64,000 nucleotides of DNA from Armatimonadota bacterium (GTDB lineage: Bacteria; Armatimonadota; SYMT01). The notes beneath the pieces are model-generated. The model was not told the origin of the DNA and did no database searches. It worked only from the letters and a program-made list of their open reading frames with translations. A program made the translations under genes and the position numbers. Shown here one piece after another: positions 2,515 through 17,254 of the stretch. Location: the NCBI GenBank assembly GCA_046292385.1, contig JBKBRF010000013.1:80663-144662 (forward strand), in the 5' to 3' direction. Within the stretch, counting starts at the first letter, position 1; each line of letters opens with the position of its first letter.

Positions 2515-4251
2515 TCAGTACCCGACGGACGCCGAGTCGGGGTTGCGCGGATCGGAGGCGCCGAAGCGGAGCCCCGTTTCGGGGTCGACCAGCACGCCCT
2601 CGGCATCCCCCATGTAGGCCGGCCGCTCGGCCAGCTCGTGCCCCCGCGCGCGCAGCGCCTCTTGCACGTCGCGGGAGAGACCGTACGGCTCGTGACGCAC
2701 CACGTCCGGCAGCCACTGGTGGTGGATGCGGGGAGCGGCGATCGCCTGCTGCAGGTTCATGTCGTGGTCGATCACGTTCAGCGTCACCTGCAGAACGGTG
2801 TTGATAATGGTGGGACCGCCGGGGCTGCCCACCACCATGAAGAGCTTGCCGTCCTTCAGCAGGATCGTCGGCGTCATGGAGGAGAGCGGGCGCTTGCGGG
2901 GGGCAATGGCGTTGCGCTCGCCCTGGATCAGGCCGAAGAGGTTGGGGGAGCCCGGCTTCGACGTGAAGTCGTCCATCTCGTTGTTGAGCAGGAACCCGGC
3001 CCCTTTCACCGTGACGCCGCTGCCGTAGGCGGCGTTGAGGGTGTAGGTGACGGACACGGCGTTTCCGGCGCGGTCGACGACGCTGTAGTGCGTCGTCTGC
3101 GGCGACTCGTACGGGGCGGGATTGCCGGGTTTCACCTGCGCGCTGGGGGTGGCGCGCCGGCGGTCGATCTGCTGGAACAGCCTCTCCGCGTAGCCGGGAG
3201 AGGTGAGGCCGCGGACCGGCACTCGGACGAAGTCCGGATCGCCCAGGTACTCGGAGCGGTCCGCAAAGGCGCGGCGCATCGTCTCGATCAGCAGGTGGTA
3301 CCGCTCGGACGACGAGTGACCGAGCGACCGGAGCTCGAACCGCTCCAGCACGTTCAGCATCTGCAGCAGCGCCACGCCGCCGGAGCTGGGCGGGGGCATC
3401 GTCAGGATCTCGTAGCCCCGGTAGCGCCCGCGCAGCGGCTCGCGTATCACCGGCCGGTACGCCTTCAGGTCTTCGGGCGTGATCAGTCCGCCGTGCGCCC
3501 GCATTTCGTCCGCCAGCAGGCGCGCCGTCCGGCCGGTGTAGAGCTCCTCCGGCCCTTCCTTCTGCAGGCGGCGGAGCGTGGCGGCGAGGTCCGGCTGCCG
3601 GAGCCGCTCGCCCGGCTCGTAGTAGTCGCCGTCCCGCTGGAAGATCCGGCGCGTCTCCGGGAAACGGGAGAGCAGCCGGGTCCGGCGCAGGTCGCCGGCC
3701 AGCTCGTAACTCACCGGAAAGCCCTCGGCGGCCAGCTTCCGGGCCGGCTCCACCATGTCGCTCCACCGGCGGGTACCGTACCGCTCCAGCGCCAGGGCGA
3801 GGCCGGCTACGGTGCCGGGGACGCCCACCGCCCGATAGCCGACCGTCGACGCCTCCGGGATCACGTCGCCTTTCGGATCGAGGTACATCTCGCGGCTTGC
3901 CGCCGCCGGCGCCGTCTCGCGGAAATCGACGACCGAAGCGGTGCCGTCCGCCATCCGGAGCACCATGAAGCCGCCGCCGCCGAGGTTGCCCGCGGCCGGA
4001 TAGGTCACCGCCAGCGCCAGGCCCACCGCTACCGCCGCGTCGACCGCGTTCCCGCCCTTCCGGAGCACCTCCGCGCCGACCCGGCTAGCGTGCGCGCTGG
4101 CAGAGGCGACCATCCCATGCCGGGCCGCCACCGGGTAGCCGACCTGTCCCCACGAGGGACGAGGCCGCGCCGGAGGAAGCTGCACCAGCGCGCCCGCGGC
4201 GAGTGCCAGGGCGGCGATCAACGGAAGGAGGCGGAGACGAGCGGCAGGCAT
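2515..4251 (-). CDS. ggt: Gamma-glutamyltransferase
   Basis: Signal peptide, GGNAVDAAVA, GNLGGGGF, DFRETAP, autocleavage nucleophile motif TTHYSVVD, NNEMDDF, PLSSMTP, GSPGG. Confidence 0.95.
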   Translation of the reverse strand: MPAARLRLLPLIAALALAAGALVQLPPARPRPSWGQVGYPVAARHGMVASASAHASRVGAEVLRKGGNAVDAAVAVGLALAVTYPAAGNLGGGGFMVLRMADGTASVVDFRETAPAAASREMYLDPKGDVIPEASTVGYRAVGVPGTVAGLALALERYGTRRWSDMVEPARKLAAEGFPVSYELAGDLRRTRLLSRFPETRRIFQRDGDYYEPGERLRQPDLAATLRRLQKEGPEELYTGRTARLLADEMRAHGGLITPEDLKAYRPVIREPLRGRYRGYEILTMPPPSSGGVALLQMLNVLERFELRSLGHSSSERYHLLIETMRRAFADRSEYLGDPDFVRVPVRGLTSPGYAERLFQQIDRRRATPSAQVKPGNPAPYESPQTTHYSVVDRAGNAVSVTYTLNAAYGSGVTVKGAGFLLNNEMDDFTSKPGSPNLFGLIQGERNAIAPRKRPLSSMTPTILLKDGKLFMVVGSPGGPTIINTVLQVTLNVIDHDMNLQQAIAAPRIHHQWLPDVVRHEPYGLSRDVQEALRARGHELAERPAYMGDAEGVLVDPETGLRFGASDPRNPDSASVGY

Positions 4252-4318
4252 GGAGAGCGGCTCCTCGGGCCGGCAGCAGTACCGGAGCTACCTTGAGAAT
4301 ACCGCAGCGTAGGGATGC

Positions 4319-4828
4319 CTACTGGACGGAGACCACTTCGCGCACCTTCTCCCGCAGCGCCCGCATGTGGTCTTCGCTGTAGCCTTCGAAGTTAGCGGCC
4401 TCCCCGTCGCGCGTGAGAAGGATCGTCCGGGGAATCGCCGAGACGCCGTACTGGTCCGAGACCGCTCCCCCGTCCGGCAAGATGGTGACCGGCGTGTCCG
4501 TCAGGTACTCCGCCGAGCGGAGGAGGTCGGCGCTCTCGTCGGAGATCAGCACCACGCTGAGCCCGCGCTCCCCGTATTCCTGCTGCAGCCGGACGAGGTG
4601 AGGAAACTCCTCACGGCAGCCCGGTCACGTGGTACTGAAGAAGCTGAGCAGCACCGGCCCGCGCTCCAGCCGCTCCGAGAGGCGAAATTGCGCACCCTGG
4701 AGGGTGGTGGCGGTGAAGTCCGGACCCGGCGCCCGGGAGTCGCCGAGCCGGCGAGCTCCCTCATAGAAGAAGAGGCCGCCCAGCAGCAGCGCAACCACCG
4801 CGATGACGACTTTTGCCCCCGTGCTCAC
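4319..4828 (-). CDS. Probable selenoprotein: membrane-anchored TlpA/AhpC-TSA-like thioredoxin-fold protein with UxxC active site (Sec at TGA 4625-4627)
   Basis: AGGAG RBS plus GTG at 4828, N-terminal TM helix, then PDFTATTLQG...PVLLSFFSTT-TGA-PGCREEFPHLVRLQQEY...VVLIS...YGVSAIPRTILL (cis-Pro loop). ORFs 4625-5119 and 4319-4555 lie in the same frame. Confidence 0.85.
4589..4627 (-). promoter_or_regulatory. Putative bacterial SECIS element
   Basis: UGA-CCGGGC-UGCC-GUGAGGA-GUU-UCCUCAC-CUC-GUCCGG gives a 6-bp lower stem, a 7-bp upper stem and a G-first apical loop 17 nt after the UGA. Confidence 0.7.
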
Positions 4829-4934
4829 CGGAACACTCCTTCCGCCCACTCCTCTTCCCAGTCTACCAGAAAGCAAGAGAGGCGCTCCGGTGGTTACCGG
4901 AGCGCCTCTCGATCTGAAGCGGGCCTGCGGCCGG

Positions 4935-5189
4935 TTAACCGGTCGCCCGGCGCTTCTTAACGCCCTTGTTGCGGGCGGCGATTTCCGAATAGAAGCGCAG
5001 GCCGTACTTCCGGATGACTGCTTGCGAGCCGCGGCGACCGATCTTCGCCATGTGCTCGGAACCATACTTGTCCACCACCGCGCGGCCGCCGGTTGCGGCC
5101 TGCTCGGGCAGGTGGGCATAGCGGTCCGTTTCTCCGGATTCGTTCAGTTGCTGCGCGTGCGTATCGTCTCGCTCCTCGACTTCCTTCAA
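4935..5189 (-). CDS. Small KGG-like / general stress (GsiB/YciG-like) protein
   Basis: AGGAGG RBS before TTG, two repeats GGRAVVDKYGSEHMAKIGRRG / SQAVIRKYGLRFYSEIAAR, hydrophilic and basic. Confidence 0.6.
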   Translation of the reverse strand: MKEVEERDDTHAQQLNESGETDRYAHLPEQAATGGRAVVDKYGSEHMAKIGRRGSQAVIRKYGLRFYSEIAARNKGVKKRRATG

Positions 5190-5266
5190 TCCATCCTCCT
5201 CATACTGGCCTTAGCCACCTTACTATAACGGTGGGCGGGCCAGAGGCGGATCGCCTTAGGGAGTTC

Positions 5267-6391
5267 TTAAGGCTGAGAGATTCCTGAGCCGCGGCGCAAC
5301 ACTTCCTCGTAGACGCGCACCGTCTCCCGGGCGGTCCGCCGCCAGTCGAACTCCCCGGCTCGCCGCAGCCCGGCGGCGCTGAGCCGCGCCCGCAGCGGTT
5401 CCTGCTCCAGCAGCCGGCGCATGCCGTCGGCAATCGCGTTCGTGTCGCGAGGATCGACCGTGATCGCCGCCTCCCCCACCACTTCCGGGAGCGACGAAGT
5501 ATTGCTGGTGAGCACCGGCGTTCCGCACGCCATCGCCTCCAGCGGCGGCAGGCCGAACCCCTCGTAGAGGCTGGGATACGCGAAGAGGTCGGCGCCGCGG
5601 TAGAGATCGGGGAGGTCGGCGTCCGCCACGTAGCCGGCAAAGATCGGATCCTTCCCCGGAGGCGCCTCGTCCACCGCCTCCCGCAGCTCGTCCGGCGCCC
5701 AGCCTTCCTTCCCGGCCAGCACCAGCCGGTGCGGGATGTGCCGGGCGATCCGGTTGTAGGCGCGCACCAGCCGGGGGAGGTTCTTGCGGGGCTGGAGCAC
5801 CCCCACCGCCAGGATGTACGGCACCGGGATGCGCAGCCGCCGCCGCACCGCCGCGCGGGCCGCCTCCCGGTCGCCCGGCGAGTAAACCGGATCGACTCCG
5901 TACGGCGTCACGAAGACCTGCTCCGGCGGGAGGTCGTAGAGCTCCAGGAGGTCGCGCCGGGTCGCCTCGCTTCCGGTAATCACCGCCGCCGCGTGGCGGG
6001 CCGAGCGGGGGATTAGGGCGTTCAGCAGCAGGCGGTGCTTGAGTGGGAACAGCTCCGGAAAGCGCCGGAACGCGATGTCGTGGATCGTGGTGACCACGGG
6101 GCAGTGCGTCACCGGCGGCACCAGGTACTGCACGTGCGCCAGACTCACTCGCCGGCGCCAGAGGTCGCGGGGAAAGACGAAGGGAGTCCAGGTCCACCGC
6201 GGCACCGCCGGGAGCACCACCGGACGGAAGTTCGGCTGCTCCAGCTTCGTGAGGGTGGTCGGCTCCCAGGTGTAGAGCAGGTACTCGTGCTCCGTATCGA
6301 CTTCCGCCAGCGCGCGGGAGAGGTTGAGCGCGTAGGTGCGGTCCCCCGTTTTGGGAGAGGTGACGGTGCGGCAGTCGAGGGCGACGAGCAT
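5267..6391 (-). CDS. Glycosyltransferase family 4 (group 1)
   Basis: [35 protein letters not shown] motifs. Confidence 0.93.
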
Positions 6392-11135: not shown

Positions 11136-14100
11136 CTACTTCCCCTGCAGCGTCACCTTCGCTTCTCCGGTGGCGATCCGGACCGTCGGCACGTACATGT
11201 CGCTCGCTACCGCCGGGAGGGCGCGGAAGGTGCCGGCGGTCTCCGGGCGGACGTAGTACTCCAGCACGTGCGTGCCCTTCTCGACCGTGCGCATGAAGAA
11301 GCTCACGCGGTCGTCTCGCACGTCCTGGTGCGCCCACCAGTTGTCCCACGGGCCGACCTCCACGTCGCCGCGGTCCTGGACCTCCCACCCGGTGGGGCGG
11401 AAGTCTTCCAGCATCATGAACTCCAGCGGCCGGTCGGTCTTGAGCGTCAGGCGGACCAGGACGCGGTCGCCCACCTGGAAGCGGTCGGCCGGACGCGCAG
11501 CGGGGAGCACCTGCGGGCGGCCGTGGGCGTCGGCCCGCGTCTCCAGGCGGAAGTACTCGCGGGTCAGGGAGACCCCCGGCAGCGTGCTTTCTGCCTGGAA
11601 GCCCACCGCGGGGACCTGCTGCGTCACCTGCACCGTGTAGTAGACCGTTCCCTTTCCGGTCTTCTTCAGCTCCAGCCGGCTTCCGCCTCGCAGCCCCTTC
11701 AGCTCCACCACCGGCAGCCGGACCACCGTCTCGTCCCGCAGCGCGTCCTCGGGCGTGGCATCCTCCGCGTGGAGCTTCTTCCCGTTCAGGTAGACGTCGA
11801 GGTGGTAGTCCGGCCTCAGCTCGCCGGTCTGCTTCAGGTAGTCGGTCAGCGCGAAGAGGATCCAGGCGGTGTCCCGGGTGGAGACCCACCGGTTCCCCTG
11901 CCGCTGCAGCATGAGCCACTGCACCACACCCGGGATGCGGCGGTCGGCCGGGTCGACCGCCACCGCCGCCTTCAGCGCCACGGCGGTCGTCTCCACGCGC
12001 TGCGGGGTGCCGTACCGGTGCTCGCCGGAGGTCCCGTCGCTCCAGAACGCGAGGCCGCCGGAGCGCGTGGAGGCTTCCCACAGGTACTCCATCGCCGCCT
12101 TCGCCCGCTCGCGCTCGCCCAGCTCGTGCCAGCCGAGGACGCGGTAGCCGAGGGAGCGCAGCAGCAGCCGCTCGCGGCGGTCGCCCTGCTCCACGCGCTG
12201 CAGCAGGGTCCGCGCTTCCTTTTTCTTCCCGGCCTGGGCCAGGACGTACGCCATGAACATCTGGTCGTCCGGGCTCACCTTCGGGTTCTCCACCTCCTGC
12301 GCGAGCGCGTTGAGACCGTTCTCGTAGATCGCGTCGTTCAGCTCCAGCCCGGCGCGGCGGGCCTGGGTCATGCCGAAGAGCACGTAGGCGGTCATCCATG
12401 GATCGAGAGCGTCGTGGTCGAACCAGCCCCAGCCGCCCGCCGGCTGCTGGAAGCCGTAGAGCTTGAGCAGGCCGGAGCGCGCCATCTCCGGCACCCGCAG
12501 CTCCAGCTCGGGTCGCCGCAGATTCAGCTCCTTCAGCGCCTGCAGCAGCACCACGTCCGGCAGGAAGCCGCTCATCGTCTGCTCCGTGCAGCCGTACGGG
12601 TAGGTGGCGAGGTATTCCAGCGACCCGAGCAGCGCGCCCGCCAGGGTGGGCGAGAGGCGCACTTCGACTTCTCCGCCGACCGCTCCGGGCTCCACCTCGA
12701 ACTGCTCGACGACCGACTCGCCGGTGAGGGCGCCGGTGCGGTGATCCACGCTCTCCCGCGCGAACGGCTGCACCGGCGCGGTGATCTCCACGCCGTCCGA
12801 GAAGCCGCCTCCGGAAACCGTGGCGGTGACCTTCGCCGTGCCGCCCGTGCCGGCCACCGCGTCCCACGAGAGCGGCACCGCCTCACCCGGCTTCAGCCGG
12901 AGCTGGCGGCGGCTGTCTCCATTCACCGCGACACCTTCGGCGCGCAGATCCGCGGTCGCGTTCAGCTCGCGGTCGGAGTAGTTGTGCGCGACCGCGGTCA
13001 GCGTGAAGCGGTCCCCCTCCGTGAGGACGCGCGGGAGCTGGACCCGCAGCGTCAGCTCCTTCATCACCCGGATGTTGTGCCGCGCCTCGCCGACCTCCGT
13101 CTTCGCGGTGTGGCCGACCACGCTCGCGCGCCAGCTCGTCAGCGAATCGGGAAGGCGGATCTCGACCGTCGCGCGGCCGCCGGCGTCGGTGCGGAGCAGC
13201 GGGAGCCACTCCGCGGTGTCAGGGAACTCCTTCCGCACCTGCACGTCGGCGTCTTTGCTGGCGTCGCCCAGGTAGACGTCCGGGTAGGAGAACTGGGTCT
13301 CCACTTCGTTGCGACGGCGGGGGTAGAACGCCTCCCAGAGGCGGTCTTCCGGCTCCGCGCGGATCGCGTAGACCGACTCGTCGACCAGCCCGAACGAGAC
13401 CTCCGCCGGCACCGGACGGCCACTCGCGTCGCGCGTGGTGACGGTGAACCGCGCGGTGTCCCGCGGGTGGTAGACCTCGCGATCGCTCTCCACCGCCACC
13501 TGGAGGCGATGGCTGGAGGCGTCGATGTTCAGGCGGGCGCTGCTCTGTGCGAGCTCGCCGCGCCGGACGAAGCAGGCGCTGACGTAGACGTTTGGCTCGT
13601 AACCCTCGCGGATCGGGAAGCGGACCACCGTCGACTTCCGCTCCAGCTTCACCGTGCGGTACTCCAGCACGTCCTCCGCCTCGATCGCCACGAGCGCCGT
13701 GGAGCCCGGCCGGTCGGTGTTCAGCAGCACCTGGGCCGTCTGCCCGGCCCGGTACTGCTTGCGGTCCGGCAGCACCGCCAGGGTCGGGTAAGTGCGCTGC
13801 AGGTCGCCGCCCTCTTCCGTGCTCACCCAGAGGTCGGCGGTCGTCTCCACCCGGTTGCCGCGCGAGTCGGCGCCGCGAAAGCGCACCATCACCAGTCCCG
13901 GCTCCGGCAGGCGCACGGAGAGCCGGGCCATGCCGTCCGCGCCGGTGCGCAGCTCCTGCGTCAACAGCTCGCGCTCGGTCGACTTCGCGCCGTCCCACTG
14001 CTCCAGCACGGCGCTGGCGGTGATCGGCAGGTTCGCGACCGGGCGGTCTTCCATGTCGAGGACCCGCACCTGGACCGGGACCTGCTCGCCCGGCTGGCCG

Positions 14101-15821
14101 AACGAGCGCTCCGCCCGCGCGTCGAGCCGCACCGCGCCGGGACTCACCCGGACACTGCCGTTTCCATCCGCGTAGCGATTGCTCGCGTCGGAGACGCCGA
14201 CTTCGACGTTGTACTGGTACTCCGCCGAGGCATCCTGGTCCGCCGGCAGGGTGGTGTCGAACTCGAAGCGGGCGGTGCCGTCGGCATCGGTGCGCAGCGT
14301 CCCTTCCGTAACGAGATCGCCGTAGGTGTCGGCGTAGCCGTCCTCTTCCTCGGCGCCGGCTTCCTCACCGTCCCACCAGCTCCAGCGGCGGGCGCGGTAG
14401 ACGCTGTAGTTGACCTCCGCGTAGCCGACCGGCGCGCCGTAGTAGTACGACGCCTTCACGCTGACGGGGACCCGGTCGCCGCGGATGTAGTGGTCGCGCG
14501 GGAAGGTGACGTCGACCTGCCACTCCGGCTTGCGGTACGACGCCACCGCGAACCCGTCCGAGTAGACCTCCTCGCCCAGGCTCACGTTGAGCGTGTACCA
14601 GCCGCCGGCCGCCGCGGCGGGAAGCTGGAACGCGCCGGCGAACGAGCCGCTCTCGCCGAGGGGCACGTCGCCCTCCCAGATGGAGGTGCCCTGCCAGTCG
14701 GTCACGCCCACGCCGACCGTCTGCGAGGACGGCAGCGCGTACGTGGAGCCGCTCGGGCGGCGGACGATGCCCTTGAACTGAACCCGGTGCCCGGGGCGGT
14801 AGACGGGGCGGTCGGTGTAGGTGAGCACCCGGTGGGTGAGCGTCTCCTGGCCGCCGGTCCACGACTGCGTGAAAGCGAGCGAGTCGCCGCGGCGCGCGAC
14901 CACGTCGACCCGGCCGTTCGCGTTGATCGGGAAGTCGGCGAGCCCCCGCGCGTCGGTCTGCCGCCCGCCCAGGCGCGCGCTCTCCCCGATCAGGCTCACC
15001 TCGGCGCCGGGTACGGGGCTGCCGGTGCGGAGGTCGACCGCGTAGGTGAGCACCCGGCCGGGGCGCGACTTCGTGACCAGCGCGAGGTCGGTCACCATCA
15101 TCCAGCCGAGCGCCGCCTGCCGCTCCCCTTCCGCCTCCACCAGGTAGATCCCCGGGGAGAGCCGCTCCAGCCGCTCGTCCTCATAGAAGACCCCCTCCGC
15201 GTCCCGCTGCCGCACGGCGTGCACCCACTCCCGCACCCGGCGCACGTGCGGCCCCTTCAGGATCGGGAAGGAGCGCGGCTGCGCGGTGGCCGCGACCGGG
15301 CTCAGGAGCGCGCGGAGGTCCGAGCCGTGCTCCCGCACCAGCAGCGCGGTATCGACGGCGTAGAGGCGCATCGGGATGCGGTCGCCCTGGCGGAAGCCGT
15401 GCAGCGACACCTTGAGCCGTTCTTCCGGCAGGCAGGCGCGCTGGTGGATGTTCAGATTCAGGAACGGCGCCGCCGGCTTTAGCTTCAGCTCCGCTTGCGC
15501 GACCTTCCCCTCCGCCACGCTCACCTTCAGCGGCACGTTCTCGTGCACCTGGGCGTGCGTCTCGATCTCGTAGTCGCCCGTCGGGATCCGCGCCAGCTCG
15601 AAGGTGCCGTCGGACTTCGTGTCGAGGTACCGCGAGTCAGCGCCGTCCTTCGGAGTCTTCGGCCGGACCACCAGACCCAGCCCGCCGAGCGGCTGGCCAG
15701 TGTCGGTCGTGATACGGCCCCGCAGCGCGCCGACCGGCTGCTCCTCCGAAAAGGCGTAGGCATAGAGCCCGACGGCCGAGAGCAGCGTCAGAACCACGAC
15801 GAGAGAAGATCGGGAAAACAT
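11136..15821 (-). CDS. Bacterial alpha-2-macroglobulin family protein (N-terminal carboxypeptidase-regulatory-like domain, MG2, A2M domains)
   Basis: TDRPVYRPG, VRKEFPDTAEW, LPDSLTSWR, intact thioester motif YPYGCTEQ, WVSTRDTA, MYVP. Start assigned to ATG 15821 (signal peptide). Confidence 0.92.
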   Translation of the reverse strand: MFSRSSLVVVLTLLSAVGLYAYAFSEEQPVGALRGRITTDTGQPLGGLGLVVRPKTPKDGADSRYLDTKSDGTFELARIPTGDYEIETHAQVHENVPLKVSVAEGKVAQAELKLKPAAPFLNLNIHQRACLPEERLKVSLHGFRQGDRIPMRLYAVDTALLVREHGSDLRALLSPVAATAQPRSFPILKGPHVRRVREWVHAVRQRDAEGVFYEDERLERLSPGIYLVEAEGERQAALGWMMVTDLALVTKSRPGRVLTYAVDLRTGSPVPGAEVSLIGESARLGGRQTDARGLADFPINANGRVDVVARRGDSLAFTQSWTGGQETLTHRVLTYTDRPVYRPGHRVQFKGIVRRPSGSTYALPSSQTVGVGVTDWQGTSIWEGDVPLGESGSFAGAFQLPAAAAGGWYTLNVSLGEEVYSDGFAVASYRKPEWQVDVTFPRDHYIRGDRVPVSVKASYYYGAPVGYAEVNYSVYRARRWSWWDGEEAGAEEEDGYADTYGDLVTEGTLRTDADGTARFEFDTTLPADQDASAEYQYNVEVGVSDASNRYADGNGSVRVSPGAVRLDARAERSFGQPGEQVPVQVRVLDMEDRPVANLPITASAVLEQWDGAKSTERELLTQELRTGADGMARLSVRLPEPGLVMVRFRGADSRGNRVETTADLWVSTEEGGDLQRTYPTLAVLPDRKQYRAGQTAQVLLNTDRPGSTALVAIEAEDVLEYRTVKLERKSTVVRFPIREGYEPNVYVSACFVRRGELAQSSARLNIDASSHRLQVAVESDREVYHPRDTARFTVTTRDASGRPVPAEVSFGLVDESVYAIRAEPEDRLWEAFYPRRRNEVETQFSYPDVYLGDASKDADVQVRKEFPDTAEWLPLLRTDAGGRATVEIRLPDSLTSWRASVVGHTAKTEVGEARHNIRVMKELTLRVQLPRVLTEGDRFTLTAVAHNYSDRELNATADLRAEGVAVNGDSRRQLRLKPGEAVPLSWDAVAGTGGTAKVTATVSGGGFSDGVEITAPVQPFARESVDHRTGALTGESVVEQFEVEPGAVGGEVEVRLSPTLAGALLGSLEYLATYPYGCTEQTMSGFLPDVVLLQALKELNLRRPELELRVPEMARSGLLKLYGFQQPAGGWGWFDHDALDPWMTAYVLFGMTQARRAGLELNDAIYENGLNALAQEVENPKVSPDDQMFMAYVLAQAGKKKEARTLLQRVEQGDRRERLLLRSLGYRVLGWHELGERERAKAAMEYLWEASTRSGGLAFWSDGTSGEHRYGTPQRVETTAVALKAAVAVDPADRRIPGVVQWLMLQRQGNRWVSTRDTAWILFALTDYLKQTGELRPDYHLDVYLNGKKLHAEDATPEDALRDETVVRLPVVELKGLRGGSRLELKKTGKGTVYYTVQVTQQVPAVGFQAESTLPGVSLTREYFRLETRADAHGRPQVLPAARPADRFQVGDRVLVRLTLKTDRPLEFMMLEDFRPTGWEVQDRGDVEVGPWDNWWAHQDVRDDRVSFFMRTVEKGTHVLEYYVRPETAGTFRALPAVASDMYVPTVRIATGEAKVTLQGK

Positions 15822-15958
15822 CGGGGCACTCCGGAGCGGACCTGGGAGACGGCGACGGGCACGGAGCCCTGTATAAGTCTCTCCGGAATCATGGTGCCGC
15901 GCCACCCCCGGGAGTTCATCGAAGGCGGTACTCCCGGAGCTCTCAGTCTCAACCGAAT

Positions 15959-17254
15959 TCAGAGCTCCGCAGGCCTGGCGAGGAGCTCCAGGAAGCGGCT
16001 CCGGCTCAGCGCCAGCGTCAGGTCGAGCGTACGGGAATCCGGCGGGAGATTGAGGAAGAAGTCGCACTGCATCCCGCCAAGCTGCTGCCGGGCGCTGCTG
16101 CTGGTCCCGTAGCCGGCGAAGGTCCGCCCGTGCTCGTCGGTAGCGCGCAGCGTCAGGCGGTACCCCTTCCGTGGGTTGCGGACCTGCACTCGCACGCGCG
16201 GCTTGAGCCAGGCGTTATCCGGCCCGGTCAGCTCCTGGATCTGGATCTGTGTGCCCAGGAGCCGGGTGGTCGCGGTGGAGGAGATCACCTCGTTTCTCGC
16301 CGGGACTCTCAGACCCTGAACCGTCCACGTCTCCTGGGGAGCGAAGCGGGCGCGGGCGGTCCGGCAAAGCTCCACCCGCAGCTTCCAGGCGCTCTCGCGC
16401 GGCGACAGCGCCGCCGCAAACTGCAGCTCCTGCGCCTTGCCCCGGCGCACAATGAACCCGTCCCACGGGCTCAGGACGTTCCCGGTGGCGTCACTGACGG
16501 TGATTCCCACCGGCTGCCACTCGACGGTCGGCTTCCCCTCCTGCTCGAACCGGAACGTGGCTCGCGTGTAGGGGGACTCACCGGGCGCCGCGCGCGCGTC
16601 GAGCTGACGGTGCCCGAAACCGGTGACCAGCTTCTCCAGGATACAGGTGAGATCTCCGGCGTTCTTCCGGATCGGGTACGGCTCGGCCGTCCAGACCGGG
16701 TGCGGACCCGGCGTGGGATTGTCGACCGCGAACTCCGCCGCCGGCTCGGAGGATCCGGGACGGAAGTACTGGACCCGCACGATACGGCCACGGCGCGGAA
16801 ACGCATCCAGCCAGACCGTCAGCCACCGGTTCTGCCCCGGTATCGCAGCGGGCCACGAGCGGTGGAGAGGGCCGATGCGATCGCCATGCTCGTCCACCGC
16901 CTGGGCGGTCAGCGCCACGCCCAGCTCCCAGGGGTGGAACCCTCCGGGGACCACGGCGAGACCGCGGCCCCCCGTCCCGTCGGCTGCCGTGAACCAGAGG
17001 GCCATACCGTTCGCGCTGTGCTGCCGGTCGCGCGGCAGTAGGAGCTGGCGCGCCGGGGTCCACCACTTCCACCCGTCGCTAACGGTGAGCCAGTGCTTCT
17101 GATACGTAGACCCCTCCAGGGTGAGCACCGTCCCATCCGGAAAGCGCTGGGCCTGGCGCCACGGCCGGAAGATCAGGAGCCAAACTCCCCCCACGAGGAG
17201 CAATGCCACCAGTGCCGCGGCCCCGGCGGCGATCAGACGTCCTCGCTGGCGCAT
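15959..17254 (-). CDS. Hypothetical N-terminally anchored protein
   Basis: MRQRGRLIAAGAAALVALLLVGGVWLLIF TM segment with GGAG RBS. Internal repeated motifs AVDEHG / VSDATGN / ATDEHGR suggest repeated beta-sandwich modules. Confidence 0.65.
   Translation of the reverse strand: MRQRGRLIAAGAAALVALLLVGGVWLLIFRPWRQAQRFPDGTVLTLEGSTYQKHWLTVSDGWKWWTPARQLLLPRDRQHSANGMALWFTAADGTGGRGLAVVPGGFHPWELGVALTAQAVDEHGDRIGPLHRSWPAAIPGQNRWLTVWLDAFPRRGRIVRVQYFRPGSSEPAAEFAVDNPTPGPHPVWTAEPYPIRKNAGDLTCILEKLVTGFGHRQLDARAAPGESPYTRATFRFEQEGKPTVEWQPVGITVSDATGNVLSPWDGFIVRRGKAQELQFAAALSPRESAWKLRVELCRTARARFAPQETWTVQGLRVPARNEVISSTATTRLLGTQIQIQELTGPDNAWLKPRVRVQVRNPRKGYRLTLRATDEHGRTFAGYGTSSSARQQLGGMQCDFFLNLPPDSRTLDLTLALSRSRFLELLARPAEL

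Follow-up and report, generated by a model that had tools for sequence, protein, structure and literature searches.

A predicted selenocysteine-containing TlpA/ResA-like oxidoreductase encoded across an in-frame UGA codon in an Armatimonadota genome

TlpA and DsbD form a textbook pair. The CcmG/ResA/TlpA family, as described in the consulted part of a published account (PMC5909903), comprises outward-facing reductases that are kept reduced by DsbD or CcdA; a Glu residue at the +3 position and the cis-Pro loop shape substrate binding, and the fingerprint GVxGxPETF of CcmG has been linked to DsbD binding. Relatives with selenocysteine (Sec) have been catalogued as well: Table 1 of a recent review (PMC13188914, consulted in part) lists, for PF00578, PF08534 and cd02966, selenoproteins with UxxC, all of them predicted. 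According to a metagenomic survey (PMC2398784), surface-ocean microbes are rich in UxxC proteins, the ocean samples containing 225 UxxC sequences of 'Prx-like 1' and 68 of 'Prx-like 3'. Selenoproteins located outside the bacterial cytoplasm are also known, namely SaoB and SaoC (bioRxiv 10.1101/2022.07.06.499078, partial text).

Here we analyse a locus in a 64,000-nucleotide stretch of DNA from an Armatimonadota bacterium, referred to below as the window. A frame on the minus strand runs from a GTG at 4828 to a TAG at 4321-4319, comprises 169 codons and is interrupted by a single internal stop; one RBS-preceded frame of this extent, passing through the TGA at 4625-4627, had been postulated in the original prediction, and the sequence bears it out. 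Taking together the evidence presented below, we estimate at roughly 97% the probability that 4828-4319 (-) is one intact selenoprotein gene in which UGA68 is read as Sec. Its features are as follows.

4319..4828, minus strand: coding sequence of a predicted thiol(selenol)-disulfide oxidoreductase of 169 aa, TlpA/ResA-like and containing Sec68 (from sequence, Pfam, structure matches and a model)
4836..4841, minus strand: Shine-Dalgarno sequence AAGGAG, 7 nt before the GTG start, seen in the sequence
4763..4810, minus strand: N-terminal hydrophobic helix, residues 7-22, a predicted membrane anchor with Lys6 before and Glu23 after it (from hydropathy, model and orthologs)
4625..4627, minus strand: in-frame UGA, codon 68, putatively read as Sec, position 1 of UxxC, aligned with the first Cys of CxxC
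4616..4618, minus strand: Cys71, the resolving cysteine of UxxC, an invariant column
4607..4609, minus strand: Glu74, three residues past the resolving Cys, at the position of Glu80 in ResA, at least 90% conserved
4430..4432, minus strand: Pro133 of the cis-proline loop, an invariant column aligned with the Pro that is conserved in relatives of solved structure

That standard gene calling would split this gene can be seen in public protein sets, since a collection of 15 billion proteins contains exact copies of a 67-aa fragment (NCBI, Logan) and of a 78-aa fragment (Logan). The full-length 169-aa form is absent from that collection as queried with C in place of U, a query blind to U-bearing records.

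The 169-aa read-through protein scores 60.5 bits against PF00578 (AhpC-TSA; cut-off 26, residues 35-142) and 54.7 bits against PF08534 (Redoxin; cut-off 26.6), and neither the 67-aa nor the 78-aa fragment, scanned separately, gives a Pfam match above cut-off. An AlphaFold2 model computed from a 33-sequence alignment, with U read as C, has a pLDDT of 91.7; it replaced a poor single-sequence model with a pLDDT of 47. The claim of a complete thioredoxin fold is borne out by the Pfam scores and the model. The active site reads FFSTT-U-PG-C-REEFP (U68-P-G-C71), and four columns of the 33-sequence alignment are invariant: C68(U), C71, P76 and P133, the last belonging to the AIPRT loop, whose cis-Pro had rightly been described as intact. 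The label of a WCxxC-type motif proved correct in one half, in that the TGA occupies the place of the attacking Cys, but Thr rather than the usual Trp precedes U. By sequence, the nearest solved structures are 3kcm, a 'thioredoxin family protein' (E 1.6e-12), and ResA, in both of which the first Cys of CxxC is aligned with U68.

The N-terminal helix, which spans residues 4-28 in the AlphaFold2 model, has Kyte-Doolittle means of 1.7-2.2 for 19-residue segments starting at residues 1-8, and the N-termini of aligned orthologs likewise show a basic start, then a hydrophobic run, then mostly D/E. Two Arg residues that follow the helix in the 169-aa protein count against an outward topology. Judging from these features, it is probable that the helix anchors the protein in the cytoplasmic membrane and that the TlpA/ResA-type thioredoxin domain lies outside. 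A different view of a genuine selenoprotein would be that it acts mainly as a peroxidase, with Sec reducing peroxides directly, or that its domain faces the cytoplasm. The second variant is left room by the topology being assigned from hydropathy and charge alone, while the first could draw on AhpC/TSA as the best Pfam family and on the consulted part of PMC13188914, where the class is named 'Prx-like' and Sec is said to favour peroxide chemistry. However, the PxxxTxxU motif given in the same part of that source is absent, as there is neither Pro nor Thr at those offsets before U68, the resolving Cys is retained at two-residue spacing, and sequence as well as structure matches are led by ResA/DsbE: the top Foldseek matches to the model are DsbE/ResA-type structures, and peroxiredoxins score far lower. 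We consider this view improbable and treat the protein as a putative anchored, outward-facing disulfide reductase.

Directly behind the UGA the following element was found.

4589..4624, minus strand: putative bacterial SECIS with a lower stem, a 7-bp upper stem (4614-4608 with 4604-4598) and the apical loop GUU (4607-4605)

For bacterial SECIS elements, the consulted part of PMC13188914 lists a loop of 3-9 nt that has G as its first or second nucleotide, an upper stem of 4-16 bp, a location 16-37 nt from the UGA and an energy of -7.5 kcal/mol or lower; the hairpin, whose GUU loop begins ~17-18 nt past the UGA and whose upper stem has -8.6 kcal/mol (-18.9 kcal/mol for the whole hairpin), lies within all four of these limits. 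The 36 nt past the UGA, a segment picked after the hairpin had been seen, fold with -18.9 kcal/mol at a z of -3.5; for wider segments of 60-100 nt z is near 0, and those of hairpin size alone stand out. The element uses the codons CGT, TTT and CCT, which are rare in the genome: among synonymous codons they account for 3.6, 7.2 and 3.1%, respectively, as counted over 2533 training ORFs. Under the codon usage of this genome a full 7-pair stem would arise for the peptide REEFPH with a probability of 7e-5.

Conservation of the stem was assessed in homologs chosen by protein similarity and not by the hairpin, in which 68 active sites could be read (four further profile matches lack the motif). Six or all seven stem pairs are present at the same position in 26 of the 30 TGA homologs versus 0 of the 38 Cys homologs, in a set whose extra matches were mostly stop-flagged and which is therefore TGA-enriched and not a census; the remaining four TGA homologs fit the hairpin poorly (3-5 pairs). 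G is the first loop residue in 30/30 TGA homologs versus 23/38 Cys homologs. Across the TGA homologs 94.3% of cells are paired, 30 cells are changed on both sides, and the stem occurs in about ten different complementary versions around a near-fixed tip GGA-G(U/G)N-UCC. Its covariation amounts to 0.401, as compared to 0.121 for shuffled alignments (0/500 as high) and at most 0.135 when the structure is slid along the alignment, the counts coming from related and hence not independent sequences and the structure from the 169-aa gene itself. Of 401 genomes of the phylum, 14 contain an exact match to the pattern of UGA plus hairpin: all seven family members, the single other member of the order and six from outside it. 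A control with the pattern reversed gave 0/401. As far as sequence data go, this SECIS, absent from the original prediction, is the strongest single piece of evidence for a selenoprotein. In the same 68-site alignment Trp precedes the attacking residue in 27/38 Cys forms and 5/30 Sec forms; its loss in Sec forms may stem from a constraint either on the codon that precedes the UGA or on Sec chemistry.

The source genome (7.04 Mb, 69% GC, 98% complete) encodes the machinery for Sec insertion. One copy each was found of selA (577.9 bits, curated cut-off 267.9), selB (367.5 bits, cut-off 242.25), selD (362.3 bits, cut-off 125) and the tRNA-Sec gene selC (66.6, cut-off 47); on contig C11 selA, selD and selC lie side by side, and a further in-frame TGA, in the context C-G-G-U, is found within selD. 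All four genes for which the original prediction had proposed a search are thereby present above curated cut-offs, and selA exceeds its cut-off in all seven genomes of the family. Recoding at single sites could be mistaken for a genome-wide reassignment of UGA to Trp or Gly, a reading for which one might invoke a second tRNA with a UCA anticodon called by ARAGORN at C77:16947-17029. That tRNA is poorly paired, is not among the nine RF01852 matches and is probably spurious. Moreover, the homologs have Cys and not Trp or Gly at this column, TGA ends ordinary ORFs (e.g. at loci L043 and L046), and read-through candidates are not commoner for TGA than for TAG (36 vs 51), so that reassignment is hardly credible, and UGA68 is best regarded as a Sec codon.

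A tree was computed from 51 domains, the site being masked. The 169-aa protein falls there into a clade (100/98) to which every one of the seven family genomes contributes a single sequence, with Sec in the source genome (G000) and in G004 and Cys in G001, G002, G003, G005 and G006. When 15 motif residues were masked and 13 long or distant rows were dropped (38 left), the ortholog clade was kept with an SH-aLRT of 98, and the sister relation of G000 and G004 seen in the 51-domain tree (94/85) was lost. The G004 ortholog, 44-46% identical, retains both the TGA and the same hairpin and follows the same two upstream genes (a glycosyltransferase and a small ORF); the Cys ortholog of G001 likewise lies downstream of that glycosyltransferase. 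Searches further afield gave only distant relatives: a protein search recovered 16 among 340 candidates, with 27-49% identity over parts and none from the ortholog group (the best named match, from Armatimonadota, has 32% identity), and pattern-seeded scans yielded 8 loci from 156 stretches of genome contigs and 4 loci from 235 stretches of metagenome contigs, all distant, with no same-genus ortholog beyond short contigs.

A gene disrupted by a single Cys-to-stop substitution (TGC to TGA), or an assembly error, would be the simplest non-functional account of the internal stop, and Cys in 5/7 orthologs agrees with the former. Nevertheless, a divergent syntenic ortholog has TGA at the corresponding column, homologs with TGA there number 30 overall, the TGA homologs share a covarying hairpin that the Cys homologs lack, and downstream of the TGA 101 codons remain open and the fold is retained. 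As to the assembly, one contig, possibly the source of this DNA itself, shows 0 differences over the stretch, and another, from a different study, covers 4598-4748, codon included, with 0 differences, but has only 27 letters on one side, where 31 are called for; a third covers 4434-4708 with 3 differences, two of which, among those listed, lie away from the codon. The divergent TGA ortholog makes an assembly error very unlikely, and we regard the whole account of a pseudogene or misassembly as very improbable. The original prediction had named three observations that would speak against Sec, namely a genome devoid of Sec machinery, TGC or TGT at the site, and relatives that all have Cys with decay downstream. 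The first is contradicted by the four genes described above, no TGC or TGT occurs at the site in the assembled contigs where differences could be read, and the relatives are a mixture of Cys and TGA forms conserved on both sides with no downstream decay, which supports the Sec reading of the gene.

Monophyly of the 17 Sec forms was rejected (AU p=0.0009, quick LG+G4, 38 rows), and therefore Sec was gained or lost more than once. Among the five Cys orthologs, the Trp of the consensus is kept in four and the number of stem pairs never exceeds 5 of 7, so the direction leans toward a gain of Sec; a tree built from SelA did not resolve the branching of the seven genomes and gives no direction of gain or loss. 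Sec is dispensable in this family, as five of the seven orthologs manage with Cys in genomes that do encode selA. In the source genome, 8 of 16 TlpA-like matches contain one TGA, always at the column of the attacking Cys, and distant paralogs have near-identical SECIS elements in common. Repeated switching between Cys and Sec is supported by these sequence comparisons, and it may be cheap because the residues of the post-motif helix, x-E/A-E-F/Y-P-H, can be encoded as a SECIS. We put forward only tentatively a wider scheme in which exported TlpA-type reductases of the family switch repeatedly between the two residues, the helix being encodable as a SECIS, and a cassette of ~30 nt, comprising UGA and SECIS, is perhaps copied between paralogs; the route may be short-tract gene conversion, and under that scheme, equally doubtful in this respect, the 169-aa gene would be a recent convert within a mostly Cys ortholog group, in a bacterium that encodes an oxidase and whose selenoproteome would be directed to the envelope. 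The tract that it has in common with one paralog comprises constrained positions only and fits copying or convergence. In both trees, a Cys clade with CGPC (L098, L099 and L040; 4-5 of 7 stem pairs) is situated amid Sec forms. A Sec-to-Cys reversion is possible there; such reversions are described as rare in bacteria in the consulted part of PMC13188914.

The gene is one of many of its kind in this genome. After a codon-model scan with a SECIS filter, 22/70 TGA, 7/76 TAG and 5/38 TAA read-through candidates passed, and for 16 of 20 hand-picked TGA candidates a Pfam match (E <=0.001) spans the TGA, no such match being found for L065, L066, L070 and L081. With the 169-aa gene and selD added to these 16, the genome has at least 18 well-supported selenoprotein genes. 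The candidates are located as follows.

C18:43539-44036, C4:278354-280774, C17:7063-7479, C14:76271-77380, C14:77453-78562, C22:72549-73142, C6:130668-132119: seven more TlpA-like genes in which UGA takes the place of the attacking Cys codon (loci L062, L069, L072, L073, L078-L080)
Loci L063-L068, L070, L071, L074-L077 and L081: other read-through candidates

Most of the seven further TlpA-like genes have a very similar SECIS, and most have export signals. Three of them, including two in tandem, carry an N-terminal region of ~220-340 residues without a Pfam match, which we take to resemble LolA. The other candidates include three AhpD/CMD proteins with CxxU, a Trx7/PDZ selenoprotein (NF041199 above cut-off), an ArsC/Spx-like UxxC protein, a deiodinase-like protein, two proteins of AhpC/TSA type and a Trx7-like UxxC protein; a rhodanese-like read-through candidate was also noted at C5:150206. 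The genome also encodes COX1, a heme-copper oxidase. This oxidase, found together with at least 18 selenoprotein genes, many with export signals, is in modest tension with the statement in the consulted part of PMC13188914 that aerobes rarely retain selenoproteins; the wealth of UxxC proteins among surface-ocean microbes (PMC2398784) lessens this tension.

The surroundings of the gene comprise two GT4 glycosyltransferases and the following elements, none of which names a substrate.

4935-5189, minus strand: hydrophilic ORF of 84 aa in which the unit G-G/S-x-A-V-x-x-K-Y-G recurs, weakly matching LEA_5 (E 0.021)
4877..4910, minus strand: 15-pair terminator-like hairpin between the 84-aa ORF and the 169-aa gene (consensus match only)
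2515-4251, minus strand: gamma-glutamyltranspeptidase with a signal-like N-terminus (PF01019, E 2.9e-181)

The 84-aa ORF, presumably akin to KGG-type general stress proteins, is 62% identical to its counterpart in the same place in G004. The gamma-glutamyltranspeptidase gene starts 67 nt past the selenoprotein stop and is possibly co-transcribed with it; it was not found beside any of the six orthologs, and no sigma-70-like promoter was found at 4200-5400. Farther along the window, at 11136-16067 (-), an ORF of 1643 aa was noted, which resembles a bacterial alpha-2-macroglobulin.

With regard to function, it must be asked whether the selenoprotein could instead be a CcmG-type reductant of apocytochrome c, or serve cytochrome oxidase assembly in the manner of B. 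japonicum TlpA. On contig C7 there is a ccmA/B/C/E/F-like run (named from the sequences and PF01578 matches) with no adjoining thioredoxin gene, which suggests that an unlinked TlpA-like protein should fill the role; Glu74, the Pro within the motif and the Ile-cis-Pro loop fit CcmG-type features, and COX1 is present. Against this, there is no linkage to ccm or cox genes in the source genome or at the six ortholog loci (some on short contigs), the fingerprint is incomplete (GVSAIPRTI vs GVxGxPETF), the NCBIfam DsbE model (TIGR00385) gives 33 bits with a cut-off of 123.15, and 15 other TlpA-like matches in the genome could serve. We hold a dedicated role of this kind to be unlikely. No match to ResB was found in the genome. 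General disulfide reduction or repair in the envelope would be the more likely role, as judged from the sequence evidence, over dedicated cytochrome c maturation.

The following course of events can be proposed. SelB, acting on the in-frame SECIS, would bring Sec-tRNA(Sec) to UGA68, giving the 169-aa protein. The Sec68 selenolate would attack a disulfide or an oxidised thiol of an envelope protein, and Cys71 would resolve the mixed bond, leaving a Sec68-Cys71 selenenylsulfide. The latter would most likely be re-reduced by DsbD, fed by cytoplasmic thioredoxin, as suggested by knowledge of the family and by a full-length DsbD gene in the genome (661 aa, E 3.9e-49 to the DsbD model, score under cut-off). 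The CcmG fingerprint is only partial, with Arg replacing Glu in GVSAIPRTI, which weakens the link to DsbD. As a whole, the mechanism of an anchored extracytoplasmic Sec disulfide reductase recharged by DsbD appears probable. Because five of seven orthologs use Cys, Sec would improve the catalysis of what is otherwise an ordinary Cys reductase and not bring in a new chemistry. What Sec adds to such a reductase is a question left open by the 2026 review (PMC13188914, in its consulted part), and a direct test of its benefit to an extracytoplasmic reductase is offered by Sec and Cys orthologs that are syntenic and whose genomes, without exception, contain selA. Likewise, the 30-member covarying alignment would provide an unusually clean definition of a SECIS that binds SelB. 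A search of the open literature, covering articles apart from their supplements, returned nothing about Sec-TlpA proteins having expanded in the lineage, about a Sec reductase fed by DsbD or about a SECIS passing from one bacterial paralog to another.

How, then, does this protein compare with the systems described to date? No NCBIfam model is matched at its cut-off by the 169-aa protein; the ResA model NF002854 gives 55.9 bits (cut-off 170). The ResA-like WAxxUGC protein of NF041054 has a ResA/TlpA-like domain and Sec at the active site as well, but our protein is not a member (22.7 vs 300 bits, a 354-position model, FSTTUPGC vs WAxxUGC). ResA and StoA of B. subtilis, CcmG/DsbE of E. coli and TlpA of B. 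japonicum are structurally similar to the model (Foldseek TM about 0.7 by query, rmsd 2-2.8 A) and have in common with it the N-terminal anchor, predicted in our protein, the Pro in the dipeptide, the Glu at +3 and the cis-Pro loop. They are, however, Cys reductases, whereas the 169-aa protein has Sec for the attacking Cys and Thr for the preceding Trp, and it differs further in having no link to cytochrome c genes and an incomplete CcmG fingerprint. With the Prx-like/redoxin UxxC class of PMC13188914, consulted in part, it shares the same Pfam domains above cut-off, Sec in the first position of UxxC, an in-frame bacterial SECIS and widespread Cys homologs, and it differs in the predicted N-terminal anchor, which is not recorded in the table; the assignment was made by Pfam domains and motif, the catalogue entries overlapping and their representative sequences being outside the comparison. 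Since the UxxC class has been catalogued and SaoB and SaoC are extracytoplasmic, motif and location are both of a known kind. In terms of annotation, two fragments are replaced by what is most probably one 169-aa selenoenzyme of a catalogued, predicted class.
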